Origin: an uncultured Bdellovibrionales bacterium
GTDB taxonomy: Bacteria; Patescibacteriota; Minisyncoccia; Moranbacterales; UBA1568
DNA: 45,763 nt
Assembly: GCA_964537075.1 (NCBI GenBank)
Contig: CAZIBB010000002.1
Span: 1 to 45,763, forward strand
Direction: 5' to 3'
Part shown: positions 4,431-30,102 of the stretch, piece by piece
Position numbering within the stretch: the stretch's first letter is position 1
How the letters are laid out: every line of letters starts with the position of its first letter
Translations under genes and position numbers: made by a program
Notes under the pieces: model-generated
Told to the model about the DNA's origin: nothing
Databases searched by the model: none
Seen by the model: only the letters and a program-made list of their open reading frames with translations

Positions 4431-6013
4431 ATGTCTATCAGCACACGCCGCATTTCTCCTATGCTCCTTGGTTTCGGAATGATTCTTCTGCTCGCTTTTT
4501 TTCTCCGCTTCTACAATATAGAGAATCTCCCCGCCGGACTCTATCCAGATGAAGCGATGAACGGCACCAATGCCATCGAAGCGAATGAAACCGGAAATTA
4601 CAAACTCTTCTACGAGGACAATTCCGGCCGTGAAGGACTTTTCATCAATCTCCAGGCGCTCGCCCTGAAAACATTCGGCTACAATATCCCTGCCCTCAAG
4701 CTCTGGTCGGCCATTTTCGGCACCTTGACCGCTCTCGGTATCGGACTCCTCGCCTGGGAACTCTTTGAACGGCGTTCCGCAGCCCTTATCGCAGCCTTTA
4801 TCACGGCCACATCATACTGGGCAATCAATTTCTCCCGCATCGGCTTTCGGGCCATCATGACCTCATTTCTCCTCTCCTTTTCTTTTTATTTTTTCTTCCG
4901 CGGCCTCCGTACCGGAAAGATGTTTCATTTCGCTCTCGCCGGACTCATATTCGGTCTCGGTCTTCATACCTATATCGCTTTTCGTGTCGCGCCATTCATC
5001 CTCGTGTTTCTCCTTCCATTTCTCATACTCGCCTACGAGAATTTTTTCCAGCGCTACTGGAAGCATGCCCTCGTCTTCCTCTTCGCCGCTTTTATCGCCG
5101 CGAGCCCGATGTTTTATGATTTTTATCAGAACCCGCATCATTTTTCAGATCGCTCCGAAGATATTTCCATATTTTCACCCAAGGTGAACCACGGAGATTT
5201 CTTTGGAACCCTCGGAAAGACGCTTGGTCTTTCTCTCATCAAATACAATTTCGTCGGAGATCAAAATTTCCGGCATAACTACGCGCCATACCCCATTCTC
5301 GATCCTATTATCGGCACTTTTTTCCTCGCAGGATTCCTCTTTCTCCTTGGTCAGACAGGCGACTGCTTCTCGCACGCCTCCGCTCTCTTGAATACAATCC
5401 TCATATCGCGCGCAATGCATTTCTCTTCATCATTTTTTTCGTGATGCTCGCACCGGAATTTCTCACCAATGAAGGACTCCCGCATGCTCTCCGATCTATC
5501 GGGACTCAAGTGCCGGTTTTTCTCTTCGCCACCTTTCCGGCGCTTTTTCTGTTCAATCTCGCCCTTCGAAATAAAGGCGGCCGTCATCTGATTTTTTTCT
5601 CCTTCATCATTCTTGCACTCGGTACAAGCGCTCTTTGGAATACGATGAAATACTTTTCCTTTTTCGCGGACAACCCAAAGCAATATTCCTCTTTCGGAGC
5701 CTCACTCAAGAATATGTCTGATCATATCAATACTGCGCCAAGCGAAACGCGCATATATCTCTCTGCCAATACCGGCTACATCGACCTCCAGGCCATACTC
5801 TTTCAAACCTATCAGCAGGCAAAAAATTTCGAAGTCCTGAAACCGGAGACTACTATTATCGCGCCAGCCGAGATCATCATGATCCGCTTCGATGAAAATA
5901 TCTTCCAAAATATCAGGAAGCGCTCACCACAATCCTTCGTCAAGGAAATCCCCTCTGATTCCGGCTATGCGAATTTCAAGGTCGTCGTGATACCAGAAAT
6001 CAAGGAACAGTAA
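4431..6013 (+). pseudogene. GT-C fold (ArnT/PMT-like) polyprenyl-phosphate-sugar dependent glycosyltransferase, split by a frameshift (ORFs 4431..5444 and 5441..6013)
   Basis: The N-terminal ORF is multi-TM with the early-loop motif LYPDEAMNG that is typical of GT-C enzymes. After about 5355 its frame gives a non-membrane tail (QTGDCFSHASALLNTILISRAMHFSSSFFS*). The frame of the second ORF is open from before 5351 and reads SDRRLLLARLRSLEYNPHIARNAFLFIIFFVMLAPEFLTNEGLPHALRS, a natural continuation. Confidence 0.7.
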
Positions 6014-6077
6014 ACAGTGAACAATGAGCAAAAAAACCCACAAGGCTTTCACATGAATATATTTCGCAATCAACTCA

Positions 6078-6163: not shown

Positions 6164-8092
6164 ATGCATCACCTCCTCCAATCCCTCAAGCGCCACCCTG
6201 CCATCGCCGTATCGCTCATACTAGTCGTCTTCCTCGCCTTCACCATCATAACCGCCTGGAACGATTCGGCGACTTATGACGAGAGAGCTCACATCCCTGC
6301 TTCCTACAGCTATGTCCGCTATGGTGACATGCGCATCAATTATGAACACCCCCCGCTCTTAAAAGACCTAATCGGTATTTCCCTCCTCACTCTGCAGCCG
6401 ACATTCCCCGGGACGGATCCTCTCTGGACCGAAGGCGTCAACGAACAATGGAACATCGGGACGCTCTTCCTCTACAAGCTTGGAAACGATGCGGATCTTC
6501 TGATCTTTTTCGCGCGACTGCCGATCATCCTTCTCGGGCTCCTTGCCGCCTTCTTCCTCTATCGCATCACCAAGGAAAACGCCGGCACCATCGCTGGAAT
6601 TTTCGCCGTCCTTCTGTTCGCTTTCGATCCGAATATCATCGCCCACGCCCACTATGTCACGACCGACCTCGGCATCGCGATCGCCATCCTGATCGCAACC
6701 TATTTCTTCGTACGATTTCTCAAATATCCTTCCACAAAAAATCTCATCATCGCCGGTATCATCCTCGGCCTCGCCCAAACCGTAAAATTTTCCGCCATCC
6801 TCATTCTCCCGATATTCGGCATTATGTCCGTTCTCTATGGACTCGGAACCGCCATCAAACTCTCTTGGATGGCGCGCATCAAGCTCGCTTTTGCGTATGC
6901 GAGAAAATACATCTACATACTCATGATCTGTTTCATGACCATCTATGCCGTCTATCTCCCGAATGTCTGGAATATGCCGAGCGAACAGATGAACACGCTC
7001 GCCCTTCAAAAGTTTGGCGATGATCGCGAGGCGAAAGTCTTTGCCAGGAATGTCATCGCCGGCATGGAACAAATTCCCCTACTCAAACCATTCACTCACT
7101 ACACGCTCGGCGTCATGGTCGTCTTTACAAGGGTCGCCGGCGGCAATGTCTTCTTCTTCAATAATCCGTTTTTCAATGATACGGAAAGGGAACTCATCTC
7201 CACGGTCGCCTCTCCCTGGTACTTTCCCGCGGTCTTCCTCATGAAGGAAACCATCCCCTTCCTCTTCCTCCTGTTCTTCTCCCTCCTCTACAGCCTCTAC
7301 CGCATCGCGAAACTCCCGCTCTGGAAGGAAGGCGCCTCTCAGTCTCTCGATACCATCATCGAGAGTTTTCACACGAAGACGATCGAATGGACCGTCGGAG
7401 GATTCATCACTCTCTATATCCTCCTCTCGGTCACGGGCAACTTGAATATCGGCCTCCGGCATCTTTTCCCTATCATCCTCTTCCTCTATTTCTTCATCGC
7501 GAAGACGCTCGCCGGTTTCATCAGGCGCCGCCTGCATGATGAGAAACATATCGCGCCGGAGAAGCAACTCAACCGACGTATTTTCTTCATACTCGGATTA
7601 GGATTTTCCCTCTGGATCATCGCGATCCCCTTCATCGCCTATCCGAATTTTCTCTCCTATTTCAACGAAGCGATCGGCTCAGAAAATGGCTACCACTATG
7701 TTACCGATTCCAATTATGACTGGGGTCAGGACATGAAGCGTGTAGAGGCATTCATCAATACTCACAACAGTGAGTGTTCCCGCACGAATACCCTGCCATC
7801 CTGCCGGATCGATACCATTCGCATCGATTATTTCGGTGGAGCGGAACCGGACTACTATCTCGGGAGTGCGTTCAGACCCTGGTATGGCGGACTTCCGCCG
7901 GAAACCGGATGGTACGCGCTGTCATCATTCTTCATCCAAGAAGATAGCTACAAGCAAATCGAACCCGGCACCCGAAGCTACCGTGACTGGCTCTGGAAAT
8001 TCACTCCTGTCACCCGTGCCGGTGAGTCCATCTTCATCTACCATCTCACTGATAATGACATCAGGTCATTATCAGTGAGCAATGAACAATAG
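6164..8092 (+). CDS. GT-C fold glycosyltransferase (PMT_2/ArnT-like), polytopic membrane protein
   Basis: 642 aa with many TM helices and an early-loop YDERAH motif. The architecture is that of phospholipid-carrier-dependent glycosyltransferases, with a soluble C-terminal domain. Confidence 0.8.
   Translation: MHHLLQSLKRHPAIAVSLILVVFLAFTIITAWNDSATYDERAHIPASYSYVRYGDMRINYEHPPLLKDLIGISLLTLQPTFPGTDPLWTEGVNEQWNIGTLFLYKLGNDADLLIFFARLPIILLGLLAAFFLYRITKENAGTIAGIFAVLLFAFDPNIIAHAHYVTTDLGIAIAILIATYFFVRFLKYPSTKNLIIAGIILGLAQTVKFSAILILPIFGIMSVLYGLGTAIKLSWMARIKLAFAYARKYIYILMICFMTIYAVYLPNVWNMPSEQMNTLALQKFGDDREAKVFARNVIAGMEQIPLLKPFTHYTLGVMVVFTRVAGGNVFFFNNPFFNDTERELISTVASPWYFPAVFLMKETIPFLFLLFFSLLYSLYRIAKLPLWKEGASQSLDTIIESFHTKTIEWTVGGFITLYILLSVTGNLNIGLRHLFPIILFLYFFIAKTLAGFIRRRLHDEKHIAPEKQLNRRIFFILGLGFSLWIIAIPFIAYPNFLSYFNEAIGSENGYHYVTDSNYDWGQDMKRVEAFINTHNSECSRTNTLPSCRIDTIRIDYFGGAEPDYYLGSAFRPWYGGLPPETGWYALSSFFIQEDSYKQIEPGTRSYRDWLWKFTPVTRAGESIFIYHLTDNDIRSLSVSNEQ
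8045..8079. repeat. perfect 15-bp inverted repeat (CTCACTGATAATGAC / GTCATTATCAGTGAG), 5-nt loop, inside the 3' end of the GT-C gene
   Basis: 8045-8059 and 8065-8079 are exact reverse complements. The repeat overlaps the codons for HLTDNDIRSLSVS. Confidence 0.85.
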
Positions 8093-8564
8093 ACAGCGAA
8101 CAACGAACATCAAGAAAAACAATTGATACAAAATATAGGCAAAAGACAGATATCTTGAAAGAAAAAATGGACGAACTGGCTTATTCCATTTACAAGGAAA
8201 CCAAAAACTTCCCAAAAGATGAGATGCATGGAATCACTTCACAAATTCGCCGATCAGCACTTTCTATTGTTTTGAATTACATTGAAGGTTACGCGCGAAC
8301 AGGATCAAAAGAGTATAAGAATTTTTTACAGATTTCGTACGGGTCTCTGAAAGAAACAAACTACCTTCTATTTTTCTCAACAAGAGAGGGTTATATTTCA
8401 AAAGAAAGTTACGAAAAATTAACAAAGATTTCTGATGAAATCGGTGCTATGTTTTGGACTACACTTCAGAAAATTAAAACTCGTATCAACGGTTGATTGT
8501 TCCTTATTCACTGCTCCTCGTTCATTGTTCATTGTTCCCTACTCCTTGTTCCCTGTTCACTGTC
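8073..8564 (+). mobile_element. IVS-like cassette 1: GAACA-word arm (8073-8113), 4HB ORF, TGTTC-word arm (8497-8564)
   Basis: Left arm: cagtgagcaatgaacaatagacagcgaacaacgaacatc. Right arm: ttgttccttattcactgctcctcgttcattgttcattgttccctactccttgttccctgttcactgtc. The two are imperfect reverse complements built from the same words. The arms are homologous to those of cassette 2. Confidence 0.4.
8122..8496 (+). CDS. four-helix-bundle protein (23S rRNA intervening-sequence protein / DGR Avd-like family)
   Basis: The sequence MDELAYSIYKETKNFPKDEMHGITSQIRRSALSIVLNYIEGYARTGSKEYKNFLQISYGSLKETNYLL is typical of the family. The track ORF starts at TTG 8155. The frame is open from 8086 and is colinear with the paralog back to 8122, where ATT replaces the paralog's ATG. 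The true start is uncertain: ATT 8122, TTG 8155 or ATG 8167. Confidence 0.8.
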   Translation: MDTKYRQKTDILKEKMDELAYSIYKETKNFPKDEMHGITSQIRRSALSIVLNYIEGYARTGSKEYKNFLQISYGSLKETNYLLFFSTREGYISKESYEKLTKISDEIGAMFWTTLQKIKTRING

Positions 8565-10309: not shown

Positions 10310-10315
10310 AAATCC

Positions 10316-10384
10316 GTAACCAGTAATTTGAAACTAGTAACTAGGAGATATCTGAAAGAAATGTGGTTACCAGTTACTGGTTAC
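10316..10384. repeat. spacer hairpin built from GTAACCAGTAA words
   Basis: GTAACCAGTAA at 10316-10326 is the exact reverse complement of TTACTGGTTAC at 10374-10384. Additional partial pairing comes from actagtaactagg and ggttaccagttact. The right arm overlaps the GT4 stop. Confidence 0.7.
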
Positions 10385-11504
10385 CAATAACGCGGTTTAC
10401 CGCATTTCGTATCTTCTCCTGAAACGCTTTCTTTGAAAATCGCATCATATTCAGCTTCATTTCTTCTCGATCGTATTTCCCTTCATTCGTGATAAATCTC
10501 CTCACTCCATCGGAAAGGATTTCCGGAGTCTGGGCAAAAAACAGTTCCCCATTCACACCGGACTCCACCAATTCACGCGAGCCGCCACGCTCAAAAGCGA
10601 TGACTGGTGTGCCGCAGGCAAGCGACTCGGCCATGGCCAGACCGAAATCTTCCTCCGCGACATGTACAAGCGCCCTCGCTTCGCTCAGGAGACAAGACAC
10701 CTCCGCATCATCCTGAAATCCCATAAAACGGATATTCTTCTTTGCCATTCTCTCAAGCGACCGTCTCATCGGTCCGACCCCGACGATCAACAAGGGCAAC
10801 TCTAATTTATTGAAAGCCTCGATGGCGACTGCAACTTTTTTCGCCTCGGTCAATCGCGACACCATGAGAAAATGACCATTCCTATGGTCATCCCGATCCG
10901 CCAACTGGCGGAGAGGGATCTCCGTTGAAATGACCGGCGGATACACCACCTCTGATGGCAACCGGTAATATTTCGCGATCCGCTCCAGCGTATATACCGA
11001 ATTGGCAATCAGCACATCCGGCCGCTCTGCCGCCTGCTTATCCCAAACCCGCAGATACGAAAGCATCATTCGACCGAACAATCGGAATGGAGCGAAGAAT
11101 CCAAGCGTGCGAAGATAGGTCTCATTTTCATCCCATGCATACCGCATCGGCGAATGCACGTAGGCGATATGTTTTGTATAAAGTCGCGTTACCACGCCCT
11201 TCGACCACGCCCCGGAAGAAGAAATGACGAGATCGAAGTCCCGCAGATCAAGAGCCTCAACCGCCGTTGGATACAATGGAAGCAACCACCGGTGGCGTCG
11301 CGTCAAAAAACGGGGAAATCTCGATAAGAATGACTCACGGATCTCGCTTCCCGGAAAATGCCTTCGTACGATATTCTTGTCAGCTAACAAGACGTATACC
11401 GGCGCTTCCGGATACATCGCCATCAAAGACTGCAAAACCCTCTCCGCTCCCCCGAAGGCAAGCAGGAAATCATGGACAATAGCTATTTTTTTTTCATCAC
11501 CCAT
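10374..11504 (-). CDS. glycosyltransferase family 4 (GT-B, group 1)
   Basis: C-terminal EDFGLAMAESLACGTPVIAFERGGSRELVESGVNGELF (E-X7-E type motif); 376 aa. Confidence 0.85.
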   Translation of the reverse strand: MGDEKKIAIVHDFLLAFGGAERVLQSLMAMYPEAPVYVLLADKNIVRRHFPGSEIRESFLSRFPRFLTRRHRWLLPLYPTAVEALDLRDFDLVISSSGAWSKGVVTRLYTKHIAYVHSPMRYAWDENETYLRTLGFFAPFRLFGRMMLSYLRVWDKQAAERPDVLIANSVYTLERIAKYYRLPSEVVYPPVISTEIPLRQLADRDDHRNGHFLMVSRLTEAKKVAVAIEAFNKLELPLLIVGVGPMRRSLERMAKKNIRFMGFQDDAEVSCLLSEARALVHVAEEDFGLAMAESLACGTPVIAFERGGSRELVESGVNGELFFAQTPEILSDGVRRFITNEGKYDREEMKLNMMRFSKKAFQEKIRNAVNRVIGNQ

Positions 11505-11664
11505 AAAACACAGAAATCAAAACACAAAATACCAGACAAAGCACAACTTCCAAAACACAAAACATAAACGACTAAGGTTTTAGGTTTTATGTTTTGAGTT
11601 TTTTGCCTGCCTGCCGGTAGGCAGGGTTCTTGTTCCGCTAGCTGGCGGATTGAGATTTGTGTTT
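11505..11664. repeat. CACAAAA-word hairpin element, copy 1 (fills the whole spacer)
   Basis: The A/C-rich arm aaaacacagaaatcaaaacacaaaataccagacaaagcacaacttccaaaacacaaaacataaac starts immediately after ATG 11504. G/T-rich partners are ggttttaggttttatgttttgag and gagatttgtgttttt. It also contains the GC hairpin cctgcc-ggta-ggcagg and the motif CCGCTAGCTGGCGGAT. Confidence 0.7.
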
Positions 11665-12741
11665 TTACTCTATTAACAATTTCTCTATCTCTTTCGCGCA
11701 TCGAATCCAACTGAAACGACTCACATTGTGGGTCGCTCTTTTTATTATATCACCTCTCCATTCCTCATCAGAAAGCACCTTTTGAATCCCCTCTGCGATA
11801 TCTTCCGGACTCAAGGGATTCACAGTCACGACGCCTTCCCCACCCACCTCAGGAAGCGAGGAGATATCCGACGTAATGACCGGTACTCTGGATGATTGAG
11901 CTTCCAATACCGGTATCCCAAACCCTTCGTACAGGCTCGGAAAGATGAAAACATCCGCACCACGAAGCAATGCCCACTTTTCCTCTTCACTCACATACCC
12001 AAGCTCCACGACTTCATCGCGATATTTGATATTTGATATTTGATATTTGATTCTTCCATAACCATATCCCGGCTTTCCCGCCAATATCAGCTGATGCGGT
12101 ATCCGATGCTGCTCCTTCAGTATCTCAAAGGCTTCGATAATCCGAACGACATTTTTCCGTTCTTCCAACCTCCCAATGAATAAAAGGTATGGTTTTTCTT
12201 GTTTCTTTGTTGGCTGTTCATTGCTCACTGTTGACTGATCCTCATATCCCTCATATACCACTTGTATCTTCGACTCAGGAACACCATAGAGCTTCATTAG
12301 ATCGGACTTCGTATTCTCCGACACCGCAATCAGCGTGCTCGCCGCTCGACATGAGAATCGGATCGAGAGCCTCATATACCATCGCTCCAGAAACGAATAT
12401 GCCTTGGGACAGAATTCATATTCGAGACCATGTATGGTGACGATCGTTTTCTTCGGATGGATGAGCGGTGCCGTATGCGCCGGTATGAACAGGGCATCGA
12501 CTGGAAAAAACAACATTTCCAGGGAAAGTCGCACCTGTGTCCAGAGTCTCGGTGCGCAAAGTTCCTTCACCGTCCAATTATGAGGAAGTTCGAATGGCAC
12601 CTGCTGTCCCGAGCGGACATACAAAAAAACCGGCTCCTGGAGGAGCGTTTCACGGAGATGCCTGATCACCTGATACGAATATTCCTCAATTCCCGTCCGC
12701 TCCGGAAGAAATGCCCGCGATCCATCGATACCGATAATCAT
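11665..12741 (-). CDS. glycosyltransferase family 4 (GT-B, group 1)
   Basis: YEGFGIPVLEAQSSRVPVITSDISSLPEVGGEGVVTVNP. The likely start is MIIGIDGS at 12741 (the track ORF extends to 12762). Confidence 0.85.
   Translation of the reverse strand: MIIGIDGSRAFLPERTGIEEYSYQVIRHLRETLLQEPVFLYVRSGQQVPFELPHNWTVKELCAPRLWTQVRLSLEMLFFPVDALFIPAHTAPLIHPKKTIVTIHGLEYEFCPKAYSFLERWYMRLSIRFSCRAASTLIAVSENTKSDLMKLYGVPESKIQVVYEGYEDQSTVSNEQPTKKQEKPYLLFIGRLEERKNVVRIIEAFEILKEQHRIPHQLILAGKPGYGYGRIKYQISNIKYRDEVVELGYVSEEEKWALLRGADVFIFPSLYEGFGIPVLEAQSSRVPVITSDISSLPEVGGEGVVTVNPLSPEDIAEGIQKVLSDEEWRGDIIKRATHNVSRFSWIRCAKEIEKLLIE
12021..12052 (-). repeat. heptanucleotide tandem repeat (plus-strand GATATTT x4.5; coding strand AAATATC) inside the GT4 coding sequence
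   Basis: The plus strand reads gatattt gatattt gatattt gatattt gatt. It encodes IKYQISNIKY. The unit length is not a multiple of 3. Confidence 0.95.
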
Positions 12742-13213
12742 AGAACAGTGAACAATGACCAATGAACAGGGAACAATAAACCATCAGCCATCAATATGCT
12801 TTTTAATTTTCTGAAGTGTTGTCCAGAGCATGGCTCCAATCTCATCAGAAAGTCTCTCAATTTTTTCATAAGATTCTTATGATAAATATCCTTCCCTCAT
12901 CGAAAAAAACAAGAGATAATTTGTTTCCTTGAGAGATCCATATGAAATTTGCAAAAAATTCTTATACTCCCTTGACCCAGTTCTCGCATACCCTTCAATG
13001 TAATTCAAAATAATCGATAGCCCGGCTCGACGAAGTTGTGATGTAATTCCATATATCTCATCTCTCGGAAAATTCTTCGTTTCTTGGTAAATACAATGAG
13101 CAAGTTCGTCCATCTTTTGTTTCAAAATATCTGTTTTCTGCTTATATCCTTCATCCATTGTTTTTTCCTCATTGTTCCCTGTTCTCTGCTTCTTGCTCCC
13201 TGTTCACTGTTCC
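12742..13213 (-). mobile_element. IVS-like cassette 2: GAACA-word arm (12742-12782), 4HB ORF (reverse), TGTTC-word arm (13170-13213)
   Basis: Left arm: agaacagtgaacaatgaccaatgaacagggaacaataaacc. Right arm: cattgttccctgttctctgcttcttgctccctgttcactgttcc. The arms resemble those of cassette 1: CAGTGArCAATGAmCAAT on the left, and the complement of ACAGTGAACAGGGArCAAG on the right. Confidence 0.4.
12784..13158 (-). pseudogene. four-helix-bundle protein paralog interrupted by an in-frame TAA (codon 94 of 125)
   Basis: The track ORF 12877..13158 ends at TAA (12877-12879), where the paralog has Lys. The same frame continues as ESYEKIERLSDEIGAMLWTTLQKIKKHIDG* to TGA 12784-12786. This is colinear with the C-terminus of the copy at 8122..8496; both are 375 nt. 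Confidence 0.75.
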
Positions 13214-13217
13214 ATGA

Positions 13218-14231
13218 CTACTTCCCCATCATGATACTCCTCTTGTAAATCTCCAGATTCTCCAAGACGAGACCTGTCCCCTTTACCACGCAGAAAGCCG
13301 GCTCATCCGCCAAGTAGCATGGAACACCGATCGTTTTTGCGATGAGCTGATCGAGGTACCGGAGTTGTGAGGTTCCTCCCGAGAGAATCATACCCTTATC
13401 CATGACATCCGCCGCGAGTTCCGGCGGGGTTTCCTGCAGAACTTGCTTGATGACATTGATAATCTCCCGCAGTTCATCTTGTATCGCTTCAGTCACCTCA
13501 TTCGAAGAGATAGTAATCGTCTTTGGCAGCCCCCCCATGAGATCCCGTCCGCGAATATCCATATGGTCTTCCTTGACCTGCACGATAGCCGAGCCGATGG
13601 TGATCTTCACCTCCTCCGCAGTACGATCACCGATCGCCAGACTATATTTTCGCTTGATATAATCCGAAATGGCCTGATCGATACGATTGCCTCCGACGCG
13701 CGCCGAAGCCGAGGCCACGACGCCACCGAGAGAGATAATGGCGATTTCTGATGTCCCTCCACCGATATTGATAATCATGTTTCCCTGCGCCGCATGGATG
13801 GGAATACCTGCGCCGATAGCTGCGAGGATCGGCTCTTTCACGACATATGCCGTTTTCGCCCCGGCTTTGAGCGCGGCATCAATCACCGCGCGCCTCTCAG
13901 TCGAGGTGACGCCGGCAGGAATCGAGAGCACTATCTCGGGACGGAAAAAACGGAACTTCCCACTGACCTTGCCGATAAAATATCGGAGCATCGCTTCAGT
14001 CACCTTATAGTCAGCGATCGCCCCATCACGAAGCGGCTGAGATGCGATGATACTATCCGGCGTCCGTCCGAGCATTTCCTTCGCCTCATTCCCGACCGCC
14101 AACACCTTGTTTTCAAACAGTGAAATGGCTACTACCGACGGTTCATTGACGACAATACCCTTGCCCGGAACGAAAACAAGCGTGTTCGCCGTACCGAGAT
14201 CGATGCCAATTTTTCGTACAAATAAAGCCAT
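13218..14231 (-). CDS. mreB: rod shape-determining protein MreB
   Basis: IGIDLGTANTLVFVPGKGIVVNEPSVVAI and actin-fold motifs throughout. The likely start is MALFVRKIGIDLG at 14231 (the track ORF extends to 14249). Confidence 0.9.
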   Translation of the reverse strand: MALFVRKIGIDLGTANTLVFVPGKGIVVNEPSVVAISLFENKVLAVGNEAKEMLGRTPDSIIASQPLRDGAIADYKVTEAMLRYFIGKVSGKFRFFRPEIVLSIPAGVTSTERRAVIDAALKAGAKTAYVVKEPILAAIGAGIPIHAAQGNMIINIGGGTSEIAIISLGGVVASASARVGGNRIDQAISDYIKRKYSLAIGDRTAEEVKITIGSAIVQVKEDHMDIRGRDLMGGLPKTITISSNEVTEAIQDELREIINVIKQVLQETPPELAADVMDKGMILSGGTSQLRYLDQLIAKTIGVPCYLADEPAFCVVKGTGLVLENLEIYKRSIMMGK

Positions 14232-14341
14232 ACATTTAGTAAAACACAATAATCAAATCACAAAGACCAAACAAAACACAATTTTCAAAACACTCACACT
14301 CAAACTTTTACATCCTTTTGTGTTTTTTACTTTGTGCTTTT
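14232..14341. repeat. CACAAAA-word hairpin element, copy 2
   Basis: aaaacacaataatcaaatcacaaagaccaaacaaaacacaattttcaaaacactcac is followed by a shorter G/T arm, ttttgtgttttttactttgtgctttt, which reaches the murA stop. Confidence 0.6.
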
Positions 14342-15602
14342 ACTTCTCCACCCTCCTGATATCCGCTCCGAGCTTTTTCAATCGCTCTTCGATACGCTCA
14401 TAGCCACGATCTACCTGATAAATATCCTCGATAATTGTCTTTCCCTCCGCGCACAAGGCCGCGATGATGAGTGCCGCCCCAGCACGAAGATCAAAACTTT
14501 TGATCGTCGTTCCATGAAGCGTCACCGGTCCGCGGAAAAGTACCTGATGCGGATTGAGTATGGTCGCACATCCTCTCATTTTCTCCAACTCCGATACATA
14601 GTTGAAACGGCCTTCGAAAATCGTATCAAAGATAAGGGTCTCGCCTTCGGCCTGTGTCGCGAGCACTCCGAATGGCGCCTGTACATCAGTTGGAATGCCC
14701 GGATAGGTTCGTGCATCAAGCTTCGCCACCGCCAGAAGCTTCTCCGCAGGATGAATAGTGATCGAATTCTCCCGGACAGTAAACGAAACGCCAAATTCCC
14801 GCATTCTTTCAAGGACGAGATCGAGGTGTTCTTCTCGAGCATGGTTGACCGTAATCTCGCTTCCCGTCGCTGCGCCGAGAATAAGGAATGTCGCTGCTTC
14901 ATTATGGTCCGGGATGATCTCATATTCGACACCCTGGAGATTCGCGCATCCCTCAATGGTAATCGTATGCGTTCCGAGTCCATCGATCTTCGCGCCCATT
15001 TTCCGCAGGAATTTTCCGAGATCCTCGACATGCGGCTCGGCCGCGGCGATCTTGATCGTCGTCTTTCCGGGAAGCGATGAGGCGAGTGTCATGGCGATCT
15101 CCGTCGCGGTGACGGAAAATTCCCGGAGCACCACGGTGGCTGGAGCGCGTTTCGACGCGTCGATCTCATATCCTTTTTCTATGCCAGTCACGGAAACGCC
15201 AAGTTTCGAGAGCGCCTTCATATGCGTCTCGACGGGTCGGGCGCCGATCACGCACCCTCCGGGATGATACAGTTTAAATTTTTCAAAGCGAGCGGAGAGC
15301 GGTCCGAGCAAGAGTATGGAGGATCGTATCTTTTTCACCAGATCGATATTCATGCGGGATGGATCGATATCCTTCGCCGTGATCGCGACGGTATGCGTAT
15401 CGCGCCATTCCACGAGCGCTCCCATGCTCTCGAGAATTTCCAGCATCCGGAAAACATCCTCGATACGGGGAATATTTTTCAAGACACAGGTCTCCCTGGA
15501 GAGAAGCGTTGCGGCGATGATCGGCGTCGCGGCATTTTTCAGGCCGGAAATCTCGATTTCGCCCGACAGCTTTTTCCCTCCCGTAATTTCGAATACCTCC
15601 AT
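14340..15602 (-). CDS. murA: UDP-N-acetylglucosamine 1-carboxyvinyltransferase
   Basis: Full-length 420 aa; N-terminus MEVFEITGGKKLSGEIEISGLKNAATPIIAATLL; EPSP-synthase-fold repeats. Confidence 0.95.
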   Translation of the reverse strand: MEVFEITGGKKLSGEIEISGLKNAATPIIAATLLSRETCVLKNIPRIEDVFRMLEILESMGALVEWRDTHTVAITAKDIDPSRMNIDLVKKIRSSILLLGPLSARFEKFKLYHPGGCVIGARPVETHMKALSKLGVSVTGIEKGYEIDASKRAPATVVLREFSVTATEIAMTLASSLPGKTTIKIAAAEPHVEDLGKFLRKMGAKIDGLGTHTITIEGCANLQGVEYEIIPDHNEAATFLILGAATGSEITVNHAREEHLDLVLERMREFGVSFTVRENSITIHPAEKLLAVAKLDARTYPGIPTDVQAPFGVLATQAEGETLIFDTIFEGRFNYVSELEKMRGCATILNPHQVLFRGPVTLHGTTIKSFDLRAGAALIIAALCAEGKTIIEDIYQVDRGYERIEERLKKLGADIRRVEK

Positions 15603-17935: not shown

Positions 17936-18089
17936 AAGCTAAAAAATACAAATTACAAAACACAAAAACCAAACAAAGTACAGAACTCAGATCTCAAAAC
18001 ATAAACTCTCTCTTGGCAGGTTTACACCCTGTGCTTTGAAAGTTGTGCTTTGTTTGGCCTTTGTGTTTTAAAGATTGTGCTTTAAAAAA
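17936..18089. repeat. CACAAAA-word hairpin element, copy 3
   Basis: 17957-17966 aaaacacaaa pairs with 18060-18069 tttgtgtttt. 17969-17978 ccaaacaaag pairs with 18048-18057 ctttgtttgg. Together they form a 22-nt stem with a 2x2 internal loop. The element fills the whole spacer between the gdh stop and the trxB start. Confidence 0.75.
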
Positions 18090-19325: not shown

Positions 19326-19454
19326 ATGATTACTTCAAAACACAAATTAACAAAACACAAAAATCCAGACAAAACACAAAATCCGAAAACACAAACTCAT
19401 CCAGTCCCCATCCTTGTTTGGTTTTTGTGCTTTAGGCTTTGTGCTTTCAAAAGC
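19326..19454. repeat. CACAAAA-word hairpin element, copy 4
   Basis: caaaacacaaattaacaaaacacaaaaatccagacaaaacacaaaatccgaaaacacaaac is followed by cttgtttggtttttgtgctttaggctttgtgctttc. Confidence 0.7.
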
Positions 19455-19766: not shown

Positions 19767-21143
19767 CTATTTTAACTCTCGTACCACTTCCCGAAACTGA
19801 TTTCCTCGATCGAATTCATTCTGAAACAAGCCAAAACTCGTCGCCCCCGGGGAAAGAAGAATACTCTCCCCTGACTTGGCACCGTCAACCGCGAGTGCTA
19901 CCGCCTGTTCCATGGATTCTACCCTCACTATCGTTCCATCGTCTTGGCATCCCATGGCCTGCAAAAGCTTTTCCGTTCCTGCTCCACGGAAAAAGATACA
20001 GCGCTTCGTTTTCAATGGAATCTCCCTCGCAAATTCCGAAAAGTCCAGATTCTTATCATTCCCCCCTGCGATGAGGATGACCGGCTGATCGAATGACCGA
20101 AGCGCCGCTATGGCCGCCTCGGGAATGGTCGCCGCAGAATCATTGAAAAATTTCACACCATCCTTCTCTCTCACGAATTCCAAACGATGCGGCACACCGG
20201 GAAATGTTTCCAGGCCGGAAACTATATCTTCTTTTTTCAATCCGAACGAAAACAGGGCCGCCGTCGCGGCAAGAGCGTTGCGCCGATTATGTGCTCCAAG
20301 GATATGCCACGATGAGAAATCGAACCATGCTTCCTTGGAAGAATTTTTCTGATACATCATTTTCCCTTCCTGTTCGAAAAATCCCTCCGGAATTTCCTGT
20401 CCGGAGAACCGCATCACCCTGCCAGGCGCCTTTCCGATCATCCGGCTCCCCCAATCGTCATCGCCGCTCGCTACCAAGGTATCTTCCGATTTCTGGAAGA
20501 GGAAGATATTTTCCTTATCGGCGACATAGTCTTCCATCGACGCATAATAGTTGAGATGATCGGGATAGATGTTGGTCACCACGGAAATGTGTGGGCTCTG
20601 CTTCATCGACGAGAGTCGCCAGCTCGACAACTCGAAAACGACGACCGCATCCGGATTCAGAGTCAGCAGATTATCAAGCACCGAGACCTGACCGATACCG
20701 ATGCGCGCCACTGGAATATTCGCCTGTTCGAGTATGTGTACAATGAGCAATGCTGTCGTCGTCTTTCCCTTGCTTCCGGTCACTCCGATGACCTGATTCT
20801 GGCAGCATTGAAAAAAAATGCTCGCGTCCGTCTCGACAGGAATACCATGTATCAAAGCCATCTGCACAAACTCATTCGTCCAAGGAATCCCCGGATTTTT
20901 TATCACCAGATCGGTTTCAACGAAGTCCTGCTGATCATGTCGGCCAAGAGTATACCGGATGGACGGAATATCCCGAAGCATCGCGATCGACGAGGCGAGT
21001 TCTGTCTCAGTTTTGGTGTCGGTGATGATAATTTCTTTCGCTCCAGCCTGTGCGAGAAATTTCACGGTTCCCACACCGCCGGAATTGAGTCCTAAACCGA
21101 ACACCGTTACTCGTTTTCCCTGAAAGAAAGAAGTATCGTTCAT
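19767..21143 (-). CDS. murD: UDP-N-acetylmuramoyl-L-alanine--D-glutamate ligase
   Basis: N-terminal Rossmann motif VTVFGLGLNSGG, Mur ligase P-loop GVTGSKGKTTT; 458 aa. Confidence 0.9.
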   Translation of the reverse strand: MNDTSFFQGKRVTVFGLGLNSGGVGTVKFLAQAGAKEIIITDTKTETELASSIAMLRDIPSIRYTLGRHDQQDFVETDLVIKNPGIPWTNEFVQMALIHGIPVETDASIFFQCCQNQVIGVTGSKGKTTTALLIVHILEQANIPVARIGIGQVSVLDNLLTLNPDAVVVFELSSWRLSSMKQSPHISVVTNIYPDHLNYYASMEDYVADKENIFLFQKSEDTLVASGDDDWGSRMIGKAPGRVMRFSGQEIPEGFFEQEGKMMYQKNSSKEAWFDFSSWHILGAHNRRNALAATAALFSFGLKKEDIVSGLETFPGVPHRLEFVREKDGVKFFNDSAATIPEAAIAALRSFDQPVILIAGGNDKNLDFSEFAREIPLKTKRCIFFRGAGTEKLLQAMGCQDDGTIVRVESMEQAVALAVDGAKSGESILLSPGATSFGLFQNEFDRGNQFREVVRELK

Positions 21144-23838: not shown

Positions 23839-23999
23839 AAGATTTTACTTCTTAAAATAAATTACAAACTCAAAATTACAAATCCCAAACAAACCTCAAC
23901 CTTCAATCTCAAAACCTGATTTTTTATTCTATTCTTTTGGATTTTAATTTTAAATTTTGTATTTTTTTGTTCCATACTCCATGTTCACTGCTCTCTGCC
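23839..23999. repeat. CACAAAA-word hairpin element, copy 5 (diverged, ATTACAAA words), plus a solo TGTTC-word segment
   Basis: aaaataaattacaaactcaaaattacaaatcccaaacaaacctcaaccttcaatctcaaaacc is followed by ttttggattttaattttaaattttgtattttttt and then gttccatactccatgttcactgctctctgcc. Confidence 0.55.
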
Positions 24000-25661: not shown

Positions 25662-25737
25662 ACCATTAAGACAATTTTAACTTTTTCAATTACGCTCTTC
25701 CTCTTCCAAACAGGTAAGCATCAAACAAGAGGTCCGA

Positions 25738-25797
25738 AATAACCAATAATCAATAACCAAAATTCTTCTTTGGTGATTGGTGATTGGGTATTATTTG
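25738..25797. repeat. spacer hairpin built from AACCAATAATC / GATTGGTGATTGG words
   Basis: aaataaccaataatcaataaccaaaa pairs with tttggtgattggtgattgggtattatttg (imperfect reverse complement, short loop). It is followed by CCGCCGGCTGGCGGAT at 25808-25823. Confidence 0.6.
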
Positions 25798-25853
25798 TAT
25801 CTTGGTCCGCCGGCTGGCGGATTGGTTATTAGAATTTATTTTTCCCAGAAAAA

Positions 25854-27689: not shown

Positions 27690-27768
27690 TCAGTGATTAG
27701 TATACTCTACCCCTATTATTGTACCACATATTCATAAAAGCATGGAACGTAAAGCATAGAACACCTAG

Positions 27769-27958
27769 GTATCTATCTCAAATCTCACCGCATGAGATGA
27801 AAAGCAAGAATGTCTCCTGCTTGTCGGCTAAAATTTCATCATTTTGGCTGCAAATCCTAAAAATCTCGTCGGAATATCTCGATATTCCTCCTCACTTTTC
27901 AAAATTTTCGCTCAAACTGATGAAATTTTATCTGCGACATGAGATTTGAGATAGATAC
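27769..27958 (+). repeat. structured roughly 190-nt element A (19-bp terminal inverted repeats, nested hairpins); homolog of element B at 41845-42009
   Basis: The terminal repeats GTATCTATCTCAAATCTCA (27769-27787) and TGAGATTTGAGATAGATAC (27940-27958) are exact reverse complements. An inner stem pairs taaaatttcatca with tgatgaaatttta. There is a hairpin ggaatatc-tc-gatattcc. Sequence blocks are shared with element B in the same order and spacing. Confidence 0.7.
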
Positions 27959-28001
27959 TAAATCAAAAACAGCCTCGACTTCCTCGAGACTGCCCTCCTG
28001 T

Positions 28002-28427
28002 TCATTGCTCCTTGTTCTCTGTTCGCTGACCGCGGTCCATATAGGACTGCAGAATGATCCGGGCGGCCTCGGCATCATCGTGCCGACCGACATGCTTCTC
28101 CCCTCGCTCAATCAAGTTCGCCTGAGCCATCTTGGTCGTGAACATTTCATCCTGATAGGCAGTTGTGACGTGATAGGTTCCTTCCAGGCTCCGACCAAGC
28201 TTTTCCCCCTCATACTCCGTTTCTTTGCGACTAATGTGGCTGGGAATCCCGATCACGACCGTGCCTACCTCCTCACGGGCGATGATCTCTCCTAGCTTCG
28301 CGAGCAGCTCCTCCGTATTATCAATGGTATCGTAGGCGAGCGCCACGCCTGTTTCCGCATGTGCCAAAGCAATCCCCACCTTTGATGAACCCCAATCTAC
28401 CCCAAGAAAGTTTTTTCTTACATCCAT
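28002..28427 (-). CDS. ruvX: Holliday junction resolvase-like / pre-16S rRNA nuclease YqgF
   Basis: FLGVDWGSSKVGIALA, and later DDAEAARIILQSYMD; 141 aa. The C-terminal codons run into a TGTTC-word segment (27985-28030). Confidence 0.85.
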   Translation of the reverse strand: MDVRKNFLGVDWGSSKVGIALAHAETGVALAYDTIDNTEELLAKLGEIIAREEVGTVVIGIPSHISRKETEYEGEKLGRSLEGTYHVTTAYQDEMFTTKMAQANLIERGEKHVGRHDDAEAARIILQSYMDRGQRTENKEQ

Positions 28428-28569
28428 ACACTAAAAAACACAGATATTCAAAAACACAAAAACCAAACAAAGCACAATTTTCAAAACCTAAACGAAGCCG
28501 TTCCCTTTTGTGTTTTATATATCTGTGTTTTGTTTGGTTTTTGTGTTCTGGGCTTTGTGCATTCTCTCG
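28428..28569. repeat. CACAAAA-word hairpin element, copy 6
   Basis: 28453-28470 AACACAAAAACCAAACAA is the exact reverse complement of 28530-28547 TTGTTTGGTTTTTGTGTT. Within 28435-28447, aaaacacagatat matches atatctgtgtttt at about 28520-28532. The element fills the spacer between the map stop and the ruvX start. Confidence 0.8.
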
Positions 28570-29337
28570 CTATAAGCGAGTAACAATCTCTGCTCCATCC
28601 TTCGTGATGATCACCGAATCCTCGAAATGCGCGGAGAGCGAGCCATCAGCCGTCACAAATGTCCAGTGATCCGACCCAAGCTTCACTTCCCAGCCGCCGA
28701 TATTGATCATCGGCTCGAGGGCGACTGCCATTCCTTCGATAAATGTGAATCCAGGAACGCTCTTTGTCACATAATTCGGAATCTGTGGCTCCTCATGGAG
28801 TTCCCGTCCCACGCCATGACCAACGAGGTCTCGCACTGGAAGAAATCCATCCTGCTTCACGCGATTCTCCACCGCACGGGCATAATCGATCATCTTCGAT
28901 CCCGAACGAAGCGTGGCGATACCGAGATCGAGCGATTCACGGGTTGCGATGAGCAGCCTCTCTGCTTCGGGAGAAATCTTCCCTACCCCGAAAGTCCGCG
29001 CCATATCCGATACCATCCCCTCATAGCGCATACCGATATCCATCTTGAACAAATCCCCTTCTCTCAGAATGCGATCAAAACTTGGAATGCCATGTACCAC
29101 TTCCTCATTGATGGATGCACAAATCGTCGCTGGAAATGGCGTTCCATGGCCATAACCCTTGAAAATAGGAATACCGCCGATCTCCGTGATCCATTTCTCG
29201 GCAAGCGCGTCGATCTCACCAGTCGAAACACCCGGCTTCACTTCCAGAGCGAGCCGATCGACGATCTTCGCCAATTCCCTTCCGGAATTTCGGAGATGAT
29301 TCAATTCATCATCAGTTTTTTTCCAATCTTGTTTCAT
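28570..29337 (-). CDS. map: type I methionine aminopeptidase
   Basis: VVHGIP, DIGMRYEG, GHGVGRELHEEP, and metal ligands in the expected order. Confidence 0.95.
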   Translation of the reverse strand: MKQDWKKTDDELNHLRNSGRELAKIVDRLALEVKPGVSTGEIDALAEKWITEIGGIPIFKGYGHGTPFPATICASINEEVVHGIPSFDRILREGDLFKMDIGMRYEGMVSDMARTFGVGKISPEAERLLIATRESLDLGIATLRSGSKMIDYARAVENRVKQDGFLPVRDLVGHGVGRELHEEPQIPNYVTKSVPGFTFIEGMAVALEPMINIGGWEVKLGSDHWTFVTADGSLSAHFEDSVIITKDGAEIVTRL

Positions 29338-29360
29338 ACATTTACATTCATTATTTTAGC

Positions 29361-29444
29361 GTCCCATTCATTGCAAAAGAATTTTTTCTGCTGTCCGTGT
29401 TCTGACGAAAGGCAAGGAAAAAATTGCTTTTGTAATAATGGGAC
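29361..29444. repeat. long imperfect palindrome filling the adk-map spacer
   Basis: gtcccattcattgcaaaagaattttttc (29361-29388) pairs with gaaaaaattgcttttgtaataatgggac (29417-29444). About 26 positions pair, with two bulges and one mismatch. Confidence 0.7.
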
Positions 29445-29445
29445 A

Positions 29446-30102
29446 TCATACCACACGGGCCTCTATCTGCTGGAAAATATCTCCGGCCGGGAGCTTCCCG
29501 TCCACACGAAGAAGTTTTCCCTCTTTCTCGAAATGTCGTATCACCGGTTCCGTATCCTCGTGGAATATCCGCCATCGATTCTCTACGCCCGCCGGCGTAT
29601 CATCCTTCCGCTGCACGAGCTTGCCCCCGCATTTGAAGCAAGGCTCCGAGTGATCTTCCGGATGAATGCCTAAAACGAATTTTTCCCCACACTGCTCGCA
29701 ATTGAATCGGCGCGAAATCCGATCGATCGATACTTCCTTTGGAAGATCAATGAAAATGACCCAATCAATACTCCTTCCATATTCAGCGAGAATATCGATC
29801 ACCTCTCCGATCTGGCTCTCGCGACGCGGAGCTCCGTCAAGGACGATACCATTCTTCGGATCCGCCTTGGCGAGAGCCCGACCAAGCGCCTGTTTCACCA
29901 CCTCATCCGATGCCAGCTCCTTCTTCACATAAATTGTCCGATATACTTCTTTCCCAAAGGGAGAATCTTCCTTCGCAATCGCACGAAGCTCACCCCCGAC
30001 ATCGATATGCGTCGAATGGAGCCGTTCCTTGAAAAAGTCCGCCTGCGTGCTCTTCCCGCTCCCCGGCGGTCCGAGCAAAATGTAATTCTTTATATTTTCC
30101 AT
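29446..30102 (-). CDS. adk: adenylate kinase (Zn-lid type)
   Basis: P-loop LLGPPGSGKSTQ and a lid with CEQCGEKF...CFKCGG. The likely start is MENIKNY at 30102 (the track ORF begins at a TTG at 30129). Confidence 0.9.
   Translation of the reverse strand: MENIKNYILLGPPGSGKSTQADFFKERLHSTHIDVGGELRAIAKEDSPFGKEVYRTIYVKKELASDEVVKQALGRALAKADPKNGIVLDGAPRRESQIGEVIDILAEYGRSIDWVIFIDLPKEVSIDRISRRFNCEQCGEKFVLGIHPEDHSEPCFKCGGKLVQRKDDTPAGVENRWRIFHEDTEPVIRHFEKEGKLLRVDGKLPAGDIFQQIEARVV

Follow-up and report, generated by a model that had tools for sequence, protein, structure and literature searches.

Four-helix-bundle genes packaged between inverted heptamer arrays outside rRNA: a possible intervening-sequence-type cassette of mRNA

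What the S23p (PF05635) proteins and the rRNA intervening sequences do has been a puzzle since the 1990s, and the abundant tandem heptamers of cyanobacteria, Xanthomonas and other bacteria are a second long-standing one. The DNA analysed here, a stretch of 45,763 nucleotides (the window), raises the question of whether the two belong together. It holds two four-helix-bundle (4HB) genes of this family, each lying between inverted arms made of heptamers and among a GT-C gene, an FtsQ-like gene, mreB and a GT4 gene. What kind of unit is this, and does it occur elsewhere? If 4HB genes were always packaged between inverted heptamer arrays, the two puzzles would merge into one.

The family identity given in the original prediction was borne out by profile matches. 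Both window genes score 100 bits against PF05635 (E 1e-28; cut-off 33.8) and 99-100 bits against TIGR02436 (8e-29 and 1.7e-28; cut-off 24), and by sequence similarity the solved relatives of their proteins are 2GSC (1.5e-15) and 2RLD (2.7e-6). The predicted coordinates of the two ORFs stood as well, but the start of copy 1 had to be corrected and an in-frame stop added to copy 2 (Table). Copy 1 reads ATT at codon 8122, the ancestral ATG being gone; its Shine-Dalgarno sequence is also lost (CAAGA in place of the sequence kept by copy 2), and the first canonical starts are a TTG at 8155 and an ATG at 8167. The lesions in both copies are recent. An independent assembly (L091), 99.9% identical, carries both of them too. 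Comparison of copy 1 with copy 2 gave a dN/dS of 0.036, and purifying selection on the 4HB protein is strong. Synonymous sites are saturated between the two copies, yet the arm words stay related. No further degraded 4HB remnants were found by tblastn across the window, which holds just the two copies.

The arms themselves were recovered by complementarity where the original prediction had placed them, and the two consensus strings that it gave for them had been read correctly. In cassette 1, positions 8073-8109 pair with 8498-8534 (37 nt, 73% complementary), and in cassette 2, positions 12735-12787 pair with 13168-13220 (53 nt, 74% complementary, rising to 80% in a 35-nt core). The heptamer unit of the window arms is GAACA plus two bases. 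In fact, seven is the sole enriched short period in the window, with 66 sliding windows reaching a self-match of at least 0.7 at lag 7 as against 0 or 1 at each of the remaining lags between 3 and 11. With up to 3 mismatches allowed, the word CAGTGARCAATGARCA has 30 matches where 0.94 would be expected. Twenty-eight of these matches fall in the four arms, three solo segments and a tract inside the GT4 gene; the other two (20734-20749 and 31999-32014) are isolated, have 3 mismatches each and are at about chance level. The three solo segments had been predicted and hold up, with CAGTGARCAATGARCA matches at 6008-6030, 23975-23997 and 27999-28028, whereas the GT4-internal tract (12215-12237) had been missed. 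A weaker partner of the arm that encodes the RuvX tail lies at 27743-27765, and comparison of the 4HB gene with the 235-nt stretch that the pair encloses downstream of ruvX gave no significant similarity and no detectable remnant.

Neighbouring genes run into this material. The GT-C gene upstream of cassette 1 ends within the 5′ arm, at a TAG (8090-8092), and none of the three frames of this arm is free of stop codons. The 3′ arm is open in every sense frame, and on the opposite strand it supplies the convergent FtsQ-like gene with its C-terminal tail and stop codon (8529-8531). The shared ...EQ* endings claimed for four neighbouring ORFs are all present, the two GT-C genes, ftsQ and ruvX closing with KEQ*, NEQ*, REQ* and KEQ*. 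Annotators should be warned that ORFs beside such repeats can pick up repeat-encoded tails of this kind, and start codons as well.

Table. Positions in the window of the two cassettes, the solo arms and the gene-free heptamer hairpins.
Feature	Position	Strand	Remarks
Cassette 1, 5′ arm	8073..8113	+	~5.5 heptamers, CAGTGAG/CAATGAA/CAGCGAA type
4HB gene copy 1	8122..8496	+	PF05635/TIGR02436; frame open throughout
Cassette 1, 3′ arm	8497..8564	+	~10 heptamers, TGTTCAT/TGTTCCC type
Cassette 2, 5′ arm relative to gene	13170..13213	-	starts 4 nt past mreB stop codon (13218-13220)
4HB gene copy 2	12784..13158	-	ATG and GAGGA Shine-Dalgarno; in-frame TAA 12877-12879, codon 94 of 124
Cassette 2, 3′ arm	12742..12782	-	abuts GT4 gene ATG (12741-12739)
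Solo arm, GAACA type	6005..6030	+	3′ end of PMT_2 ORF; stop codon 6011-6013 inside arm
Solo arm, GAACA type	23968..23999	-	right after stop codon of fructose-bisphosphate aldolase gene
Solo arm, GAACA type	27999..28030	-	encodes RuvX tail QRTENKEQ*
Arm-like tract, three heptamers	12215..12237	-	inside GT4 coding sequence; encodes QSTVSNEQ in two-domain linker
Gene-free heptamer hairpin	28428..28565	.	AAAACAC/GTGTTTT class; between + strand ORF 28627-29673 and ruvX start
Further gene-free hairpins	10310-10390, 11505-11604, 14250-14345, 17936-18085, 19326-19450, 23839-23968, 25730-25800		represented by 28428..28565

The heptamer-armed packaging of 4HB genes is not a local oddity of the window. 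The comparison covered 84 cassettes, made up of 82 relatives (almost all from Patescibacteria) and the two window copies, together with 196 control genes. Flank pairing was taken as the predicted duplex energy of the 60 nt upstream against the 60 nt downstream, and values of -25 kcal/mol or better were counted as strong. The median flank duplex was -29 kcal/mol for the 84 cassettes, as against -17.6 for flanks of different loci (p = 2.5e-12) and -14 for the controls; strong complementarity was found at 69% of the cassettes and at 11% of the controls (p = 5e-24). In fact, the controls with true heptamer arms turned out to be more 4HB genes, namely two divergent Patescibacteria paralogues and two cyanobacterial plasmid copies that had stayed unmasked in the control set. 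No cargo other than 4HB was seen between heptamer arms among the cassettes and the 196 controls. Bracketing by matched inverted arms is specific to 4HB genes, and the architecture is spread across phyla.

The repeat unit varies between genomes and matches within a locus, and an AACA core is shared. The clade-wide consensus is T-R-W-A-A-C-A, and in the phased unit A reaches 97% and C 92% at fixed positions, giving an information content of 4.84 bits as against 2.76 +/- 0.26 in column-permuted controls. A conserved core of this kind is superfluous for a plain stem and hints at recognition by a protein. Similarity of the arm units follows protein identity (r = 0.38, where the maximum of 500 permutations was 0.255), and the closest relatives have identical arm words in differing gene neighbourhoods. 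Arms and gene are thus inherited jointly, which upholds the earlier idea of a duplicated stem-ORF-stem unit outside rRNA. Between two near-identical contigs (L081 and L082), the 5′ arm differs by an indel of 28 nt, or four units. Across relatives with a conserved murA-mreB, the site after mreB can be empty or occupied by either a gene-free hairpin or a cassette, and in four cassette-free relatives just 0-8 nt separate mreB from GT4. A second assembly of the window showed no difference across both cassettes, and six assemblies of one related cassette, from different samples, were mutually identical; L081 and L082 were the sole pair to differ.

The reading that we prefer, and to which we would give an even chance, is that each locus is an intervening-sequence-type cassette that lives in mRNA and not in rRNA. 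The cassette would be a gene of ~375 nt for a four-helix-bundle protein (PF05635, Avd-related) set inside two inverted tandem-heptamer arrays, and would fill the entire spacer between two genes and be transcribed with both. The arms would pair in the transcript to give a stem of 35-50 bp with the gene looped out, and the stem would juxtapose the upstream stop and the downstream start. The inward-facing arm would give stops in three frames, and the outward-facing arm would stay open and provide the predicted downstream start codon. With the gene looped out and stops and start supplied, insertion between translationally coupled genes would therefore be nearly harmless; a small element could then live between such genes of a minimal genome without breaking them. 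By analogy with 23S intervening sequences, the stem would also be a likely substrate for RNase III. Finally, the jointly inherited arms and gene would gain and lose units by 7-nt slippage, with solo arms and empty hairpins left behind.

Several features of the loci are consistent with this scheme. The 4HB genes are co-oriented with their neighbours at 93% and 94% of the loci, as compared with a baseline of 83%, and the median gaps to those neighbours are 40 and 33 nt, spacers that the arms fill. A stem enclosing the ORF is predicted in both the minimum-energy and the centroid folds of both cassettes. In cassette 2, the entire ORF is enclosed by the terminal stem (-133 vs -101 kcal/mol, z = -6.1), and the GT4 ATG is predicted to pair with a CAU (13216-13214) at the stem base, 2 nt past the mreB stop; cassette 1, folded as a whole molecule, does no better than shuffled sequence (z = -0.7), which counts against the scheme. 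Stops in all three frames are seen in 52% of the inward-reading arms (shuffled 25%), and 20% of the outward-reading ones are stop-free (shuffled 5%). Considering these features, we infer that the arms pair as RNA, that translation may be coupled across the stem, and that RNase III may cut it.

An RNA wobble signature in the arms was also looked for and rejected. The duplex energies of sense and antisense strands do not differ (39/84; p = 0.83), and mismatches of the G.U type are not favoured over those of the A.C type (81 vs 98; p = 0.23). The complementarity could therefore reflect DNA-level upkeep or the common descent of the arms, and the RNA-level reading accordingly rests on context and not on covariation.

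Work on the rRNA intervening sequences provides a close parallel, and the link to them in the original prediction has been strengthened. In the 23S intervening sequence of Coxiella burnetii, the S23p ORF is immediately preceded by tandem GACAGAT heptamers, more in some strains than in others; experimental mapping places RNase III cleavage at the first of these repeats, and the RNA element persists although its ORF is in decay (PMC4990558). Intervening sequences with S23p in 23S rRNA also occur in Leptospira, Brucella and Xanthomonas (PMC4990558). Like the cassettes here, they place the same protein family in the loop of a terminal-inverted-repeat stem. Unlike them, the present cassettes lie between protein-coding genes, have arms made wholly of heptamers and encode a protein under strong purifying selection. 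A location in rRNA was ruled out for the cassettes, as 16S/23S rRNA motifs were absent near all 92 loci tested, and at gathering thresholds Rfam reported no family in the window.

Another means by which the arms could function is as arrays recognised by a protein, the pentameric 4HB protein binding the heptamer units through their AACA core in DNA or RNA; we regard this as doubtful. The protein would either regulate its own cassette or maintain and spread the heptamer hairpins of the genome, in the manner of RAYT with REP/REPIN. It speaks for recognition that 4HB is the sole cargo between heptamer arms, that the unit keeps a sequence core beyond mere complementarity, that selection on the protein is so strong, that the related Avd protein binds RNA and a reverse transcriptase, and that taxa already known for heptamers (cyanobacteria, Xanthomonas) have flanked 4HB genes. 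Moreover, 17% of nearby gene-free tracts share the unit of the local cassette, as against 0% for units of other loci. The Xanthomonas 4HB protein is described as a homopentameric ring (PMC4990558), and the 2GSC and 2RLD entries list five chains each. Against recognition, a catalytic motif is absent, the arms persist although both window copies are damaged, and most gene-free hairpins use other units (AAAACAC, AATTTTC) without the AACA core (37% as against 83%). The likeness to REP/REPIN-RAYT is that one gene stands between inverted repeats which recur, in the same genome, as gene-free intergenic hairpins. The differences are that the cargo here is 4HB and not an HUH (IS200/IS605-like) tyrosine transposase, that the repeats are slippage-prone tandem heptamers in place of a fixed palindrome, and that many paralogous cassettes are possible per genome, each with its own unit. 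That a pentameric 4HB ring is the trans-acting partner that reads 7-nt units, with each protein clade matched to its own unit, is likewise an unlikely proposal, if one with reach. Were 4HB to read heptamers, it could control the processing, translation or spread of a genome-wide hairpin network, and cyanobacterial STRR, Xanthomonas- and Beggiatoa-type heptamers and the rRNA intervening-sequence ORF would be explained together.

It is also conceivable, though distinctly improbable, that the arms are terminal inverted repeats or hairpin ends of an element moving at the DNA level, driven by a trans-acting recombinase or by template switches at the hairpins, and that any RNA stem is incidental. 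The variable filling of the post-mreB site, the presence of the same arm words around the closest homologues in other neighbourhoods, and the occurrence of solo arms and empty hairpins would all suit mobility, and the lack of wobble-pair bias is what a DNA-level constraint predicts. Even so, the 32 scanned ORFs, about two thirds of the window genes, include no transposase, integrase or reverse transcriptase. A target-site duplication is not visible at either cassette, where a short one could be hidden because the arms are repetitive. The identity of one cassette in six assemblies from different samples likewise argues against movement, and exact stop-to-start insertion on the neighbours' strand better fits selection at the level of expression. 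Carriage by phages was rejected, since relatives are absent from viral contigs (0 matches) and phage records gave one weak match; the PADLOC defence-system models had no match either.

Coincidence, in which heptamers are generic spacer material and 4HB genes merely happen to lie between two such spacers, is already disfavoured and in our estimate very unlikely. The repeat type is certainly common. Period-7 tracts occur in 29% of the other spacers of related loci and in many of the window's own spacers, several gene-free ones fold as long hairpins, and about a quarter of other spacers hold heptamer-built hairpins without a gene; the repeat type is therefore generic, as the original prediction had allowed in naming what would count against it. 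The matched bracketing of a gene, on the other hand, is specific to 4HB: the excess of strong inverted flanks over controls is large, flanks of the same locus pair far better than flanks of different loci, the arm unit tracks the protein, and other phyla show the pattern too.

An invertible switch, or a stray Avd gene of a diversity-generating retroelement, is barely credible: a short segment flanked by inverted repeats and weak hits against Avd models (31-37 bits for PF22296, 27-32 bits for NF033474, 2e-10 for phrog_3206) invite the idea, but the first two fall short of the respective cut-offs, 40 and 80 bits, the scanned ORFs lack a reverse transcriptase, and the invertibility once suggested for the cassettes is at odds with their 93-94% co-stranding against the 83% baseline and with the lack of orientation variants among repeated assemblies of the same cassette. 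The likeness of Avd to the 4HB proteins is that of a related four-helix-bundle fold family, with PF22296 and NF033474 sub-threshold, whereas the cassettes here are heptamer-armed and sit in housekeeping operons with no reverse transcriptase nearby.

The known heptamer repeats of other bacteria (cyanobacterial STRR, TAACTGA of Beggiatoaceae, GGGAATC of Xanthomonas) are likewise tandem, lie in spacers and often touch start codons, and prokaryotic heptamer simple-sequence repeats in general share with the present arms intergenic tandem 7-nt units with copy-number polymorphism, as between L081 and L082. Intergenic heptamers in forward orientation have stops in all three frames (PMC4679880). Those of Xanthomonas at times form inverted pairs within operons, such as groES/groEL; what differs here is the matched inverted arms around one gene family. 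A link between heptamers and the 4HB gene was not made in PMC4679880 or PMC4692102, and full-text searches, in which subscription journals were mostly uncovered, turned up no description of 4HB genes between heptamer arms other than in rRNA.

On the present evidence, the packaging spans rRNA, Patescibacteria operons, cyanobacterial plasmids (including sites inside cas operons) and the Xanthomonas accB operon. The cyanobacterial plasmid copies of 4HB do have flanking heptamers, and in a few cyanobacterial copies (L087, L175, L088) the flanks are direct and not inverted, an observation that counts against the stem model. The merged puzzle would be tractable in culturable organisms, as a crystal structure and published RNA-seq are available for XCC0516. 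In Xanthomonas, a GGGAATC tract overlaps the start codon of XCC0516, which encodes the protein of PDB 2GSC. Its X. citri counterpart, in the same place beside bccP, has repeats at both ends and belongs to one three-gene transcript in the RNA-seq table (PMC4692102 supplement).

Both genes named in the original prediction belong to the four-helix-bundle (4HB) family otherwise known from rRNA intervening sequences, matching the PF05635/TIGR02436 profiles at ~1e-28 (~100 bits), and they score under the cut-offs of the models for Avd, the accessory protein of diversity-generating retroelements. The ancestral start codon of copy 1 is now ATT and its Shine-Dalgarno sequence is gone, while copy 2 is interrupted by an in-frame TAA. 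Both of these lesions recur in an independent assembly (contig L091) that is 99.9% identical across 18.5 kb. Since the two copies compare at a dN/dS of 0.036 with synonymous sites saturated, the lesions in both must be recent.

Imperfect inverted repeats enclose each of the two genes, and computed arm pairing placed them at the coordinates given in the prediction. The "GAACA words" of the arms are in fact tandem heptamer units. Period 7 is the sole enriched short period in the window, with 66 sliding windows of at least 0.7 self-match against 0–1 at lags 3–6 and 8–11. The arm word CAGTGARCAATGARCA was matched 30 times with up to three mismatches (0.94 expected); 28 of these matches fall in the four arms, three solo arms (arm-like tracts with no 4HB gene) and a tract inside the GT4 gene, and the other two are isolated. 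The solo arms lie 3′ of genes, where they provide or adjoin stop codons, and the four neighbouring ORFs noted for ending in ...EQ* do have their stops within GAACARTRR words.

Coordinates of repeats, cassettes and related features in the window
Feature	Positions	Strand	Remark
4HB gene, copy 1	8122–8496	+	start codon now ATT
Cassette 1 arms	8073–8109 with 8498–8534		73% complementarity
4HB gene, copy 2	12784–13158	-	in-frame TAA at 12877–12879
Cassette 2 arms	12735–12787 with 13168–13220		74% complementarity; 35-nt core 80%
Solo arm	6008–6030		CAGTGARCAATGARCA word matches
Solo arm	23975–23997		CAGTGARCAATGARCA word matches
Solo arm	27999–28028		CAGTGARCAATGARCA word matches
Arm-like tract inside GT4 gene	12215–12237		encodes QSTVSNEQ, interdomain linker
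(ATCAAAT) repeat in GT4 gene	12021–12051	-	residues 231–241, IKYQISNIKYR
24-nt core ACACAAAAACCAAACAAAGCACAA	14258–14281, 17960–17983, 18043–18066, 28454–28477, 28523–28546		five copies, up to 3 mismatches
GC-rich palindromes CCTGCCTGCCGGTAGGCAGG and CCGCYRGCTGGCGGAT	11606–11625; also 11635, 25807, 32679		within or beside heptamer hairpins
Inverted repeat GTATCTATCTCAAATCTCA...	27769–27790 and 27940–27960		ruvX-GT2 spacer
Inverted repeat TTTATCAAGGTCCGACCTT...AAGGTCGGACCTTGATAAA	6070–6140		3′ of PMT_2 gene
Missing base relative to L091	5358		splits PMT_2 gene
PMT_2 ORFs	4431–5444 and 5441–6013		337 aa and 190 aa

The nearest homologues of the window's 4HB genes are found in Patescibacteria such as Moranbacteria, and flanks were read for each 4HB gene in 80 genomic loci and contigs of the closest relatives. 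Almost all of these genes have tandem heptamers directly 5′ and the reverse complement directly 3′, with a unit that varies between genomes (CATGGAA, CATGTAA, CTTGAAA, CATATAA, CGTGAAG, CAGTTAA and CAATAAA are examples) and agrees within a locus. Duplexes were predicted between the two flanks, 60 nt on either side of the gene, in 84 cassettes: the window's two and 82 of related loci. Their median energy was -29 kcal/mol; shuffling the partner flank weakened it to -14.8, and exchanging that flank for one of another locus to -17.6 (p = 2.5e-12). Phased units gave the consensus T-R-W-A-A-C-A, its fixed A and C reaching 97% and 92%, with an information content of 4.84 bits (column-permuted controls, 2.76 ± 0.26), so that the core of the clade is what the window carries as its GAACA word. 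Arm-unit similarity climbs with protein identity (Spearman r = 0.38; maximum of 500 permutations, 0.255) and paralogues within one genome carry unlike units; gene and arms are thus inherited as a single cassette.

In the window a heptamer hairpin by itself is generic to spacers, as many other spacers are long gene-free hairpins built from different words, including AAAACAC/GTGTTTT, AATAACC, GTAACTA and TTTTGAA, with z-scores of -3.5 to -4.4 in five of the eight folded. Three of the folded hairpins share the 24-nt core ACACAAAAACCAAACAAAGCACAA, present in five copies (both arms counted) where none is expected, and these AAAACAC-class hairpins form a dispersed REP- or MITE-like family distinct from the GAACA arms. 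A pure coincidence of 4HB genes with such spacers is rejected on a test of 196 control genes with spacers on both sides, for which the median predicted duplex was -14 kcal/mol; 69% of cassettes but 11% of controls reached -25 or better (p = 5e-24). The controls with genuine heptamer brackets proved to be further 4HB genes (two divergent paralogues and two unmasked cyanobacterial copies), so that 4HB is the only cargo seen.

As predicted, the cassettes lie outside any rRNA: rRNA motifs were absent from all 92 loci tested, and neither tRNA nor Rfam families were found in the window. Glycosyltransferase clusters are a recurrent setting for the cassettes of this clade. Cassette 2 stands in the order mreB, 4HB, GT4, every gene on the minus strand; cassette 1 follows a GT-C gene and is convergent with an FtsQ-like gene. 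Across loci, the 4HB strand is that of the upstream neighbour in 93% and of the downstream neighbour in 94% (baseline 83% per gene pair), which leaves the suggestion of an invertible cassette unsupported. Gaps to the neighbours have medians of 40 and 33 nt, of which the predicted duplexes leave a median of 6.5 nt between 5′ arm and start codon and of 2 nt between stop codon and 3′ arm. Judging from sequence, these distances leave no space for a private promoter or terminator, and so the arms must be transcribed within the operon mRNA.

In the predicted fold of cassette 2, a terminal stem encloses the whole ORF (-133 kcal/mol against -101 for shuffles, z = -6.1) and pairs the GT4 start codon (12741–12739) with CAU at 13216–13214, which one unpaired base (13217) separates from the mreB stop codon. 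Among relatives keeping the murA-mreB-GT4 order, the mreB-GT4 spacer is 0–8 nt in four loci, a gene-free heptamer hairpin in about nine, with a different unit in each, and a 4HB cassette in two more. The predicted stem would therefore bring stop and start close again, as in the uninterrupted operon. A unit of 7 nt also allows one stop codon to reach all three frames within three units. Read inward, 52% of arms have stops in all three frames (25% when shuffled); read outward, 20% are stop-free in every frame (5% when shuffled), and they are richer in ATG. Co-orientation, tight gaps, stem and arm polarity together suggest a cassette adapted to a place between coupled genes, much as an rRNA intervening sequence occupies a helix. 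By analogy with Coxiella, and given the duplex length, the stem would probably be cut by RNase III.

Against such a role, the arms showed no RNA-specific signal, with equal sense and antisense energies and no favouring of G.U-type mismatches (81 vs 98), and cassette 1, folded as a whole molecule, is unremarkable. The main rival is protein recognition, by which a 4HB pentamer would bind the heptamer arrays and be their partner as RAYTs are of REPINs. A plain stem does not need the AACA core, and its conservation therefore suggests recognition by a protein. Moreover, a cassette's own unit occurs in 17% of nearby gene-free tracts, against 0% for units of other loci. The closest solved structure is XCC0516 of Xanthomonas campestris (2GSC, 1.5e-15), followed by 2RLD, and both entries hold five chains. 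Mobility at the DNA level is possible as well, given that a cassette may be present or absent at one fixed site and that the same arms recur in new neighbourhoods, but searches showed no recombinase among the window ORFs scanned, no visible target duplication and no phage carriage. The other 30 ORFs scanned in the window have housekeeping or unassigned products (among them murA, mreB, glycosyltransferases, holB, FtsQ-like, gdhA, murD, glycolytic enzymes, ruvX, secY and ribosomal proteins) and include no reverse transcriptase, transposase or integrase. As none of the defining parts of a diversity-generating retroelement came to light among the ORFs scanned, a role in one is improbable.

Comparable packaging of 4HB genes between heptamers extends to other phyla. 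Most of 17 cyanobacterial plasmid copies (33–47% identity) have purine-rich flanking heptamers, usually inverted and occasionally direct, with units including GGGAAAA, GGGAACA, GGGTGTA, GTCAGAA, GGAGATA, GGGCAGA and AGGTGAC. Three of these cassettes (loci L084, L087 and L179) lie in cas operons, twice separating cas6 from cas4 in type I-D loci and once cmr2 from cmr3. Such positions may account for the appearance of "23S rRNA IVP" as a CRISPR-linked domain in a terascale clustering study (PMC10910872). In Xanthomonas, a GGGAATC tract covers the start codon of XCC0516, a neighbour of bccP (supplementary table, PMC4692102, where the protein family goes unmentioned). Inverted GGGAATC tracts 60 nt apart in the groES-groEL spacer of X. 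campestris and X. citri (PMC4692102 supplement) are the counterpart of the window's gene-free intercistronic hairpins. The Coxiella 23S intervening sequence has two or three GACAGAT heptamers directly 5′ of a decaying S23p ORF, their number being strain-dependent and the first repeat being the RNase III cut site (PMC4990558); a 28-nt (four-unit) difference in the 5′ arm between two near-identical contigs of our set resembles this variation. Insertions with 4HB-family ORFs also occur in the rRNA of CPR bacteria (PMC11270868). While 4HB genes outside rRNA, intervening sequences with S23p ORFs and bacterial heptamer repeats were already known, an incomplete search, which an earlier description may have escaped, found no published account of PF05635 genes specifically packaged in inverted heptamer arrays across phyla, or equating this packaging with that of intervening sequences.

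Several other features of the window were recorded. The perfect (ATCAAAT) × 4.4 repeat in the GT4 coding sequence could be a slipped-strand on/off site in a surface-glycan gene, because adding or losing a single unit would cause a frameshift. In loci L093–L172 the murA-mreB pair is conserved (MreB 65–89% identical) and the glycosyltransferase that follows is just 25–41% identical to the window's GT4; a variable glycan locus starts directly after mreB in these relatives. GCCTGCC..GGCAGGC palindromes near-identical to the window's occur in unrelated Patescibacteria loci (L033, L098 and L105), and the two perfect inverted repeats of 20–21 nt, in the ruvX-GT2 spacer and 3′ of PMT_2, are without heptamer character. 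Finally, the base missing relative to L091 splits a 527-aa PMT_2 glycosyltransferase into two ORFs and is either a true frameshift or an assembly error.
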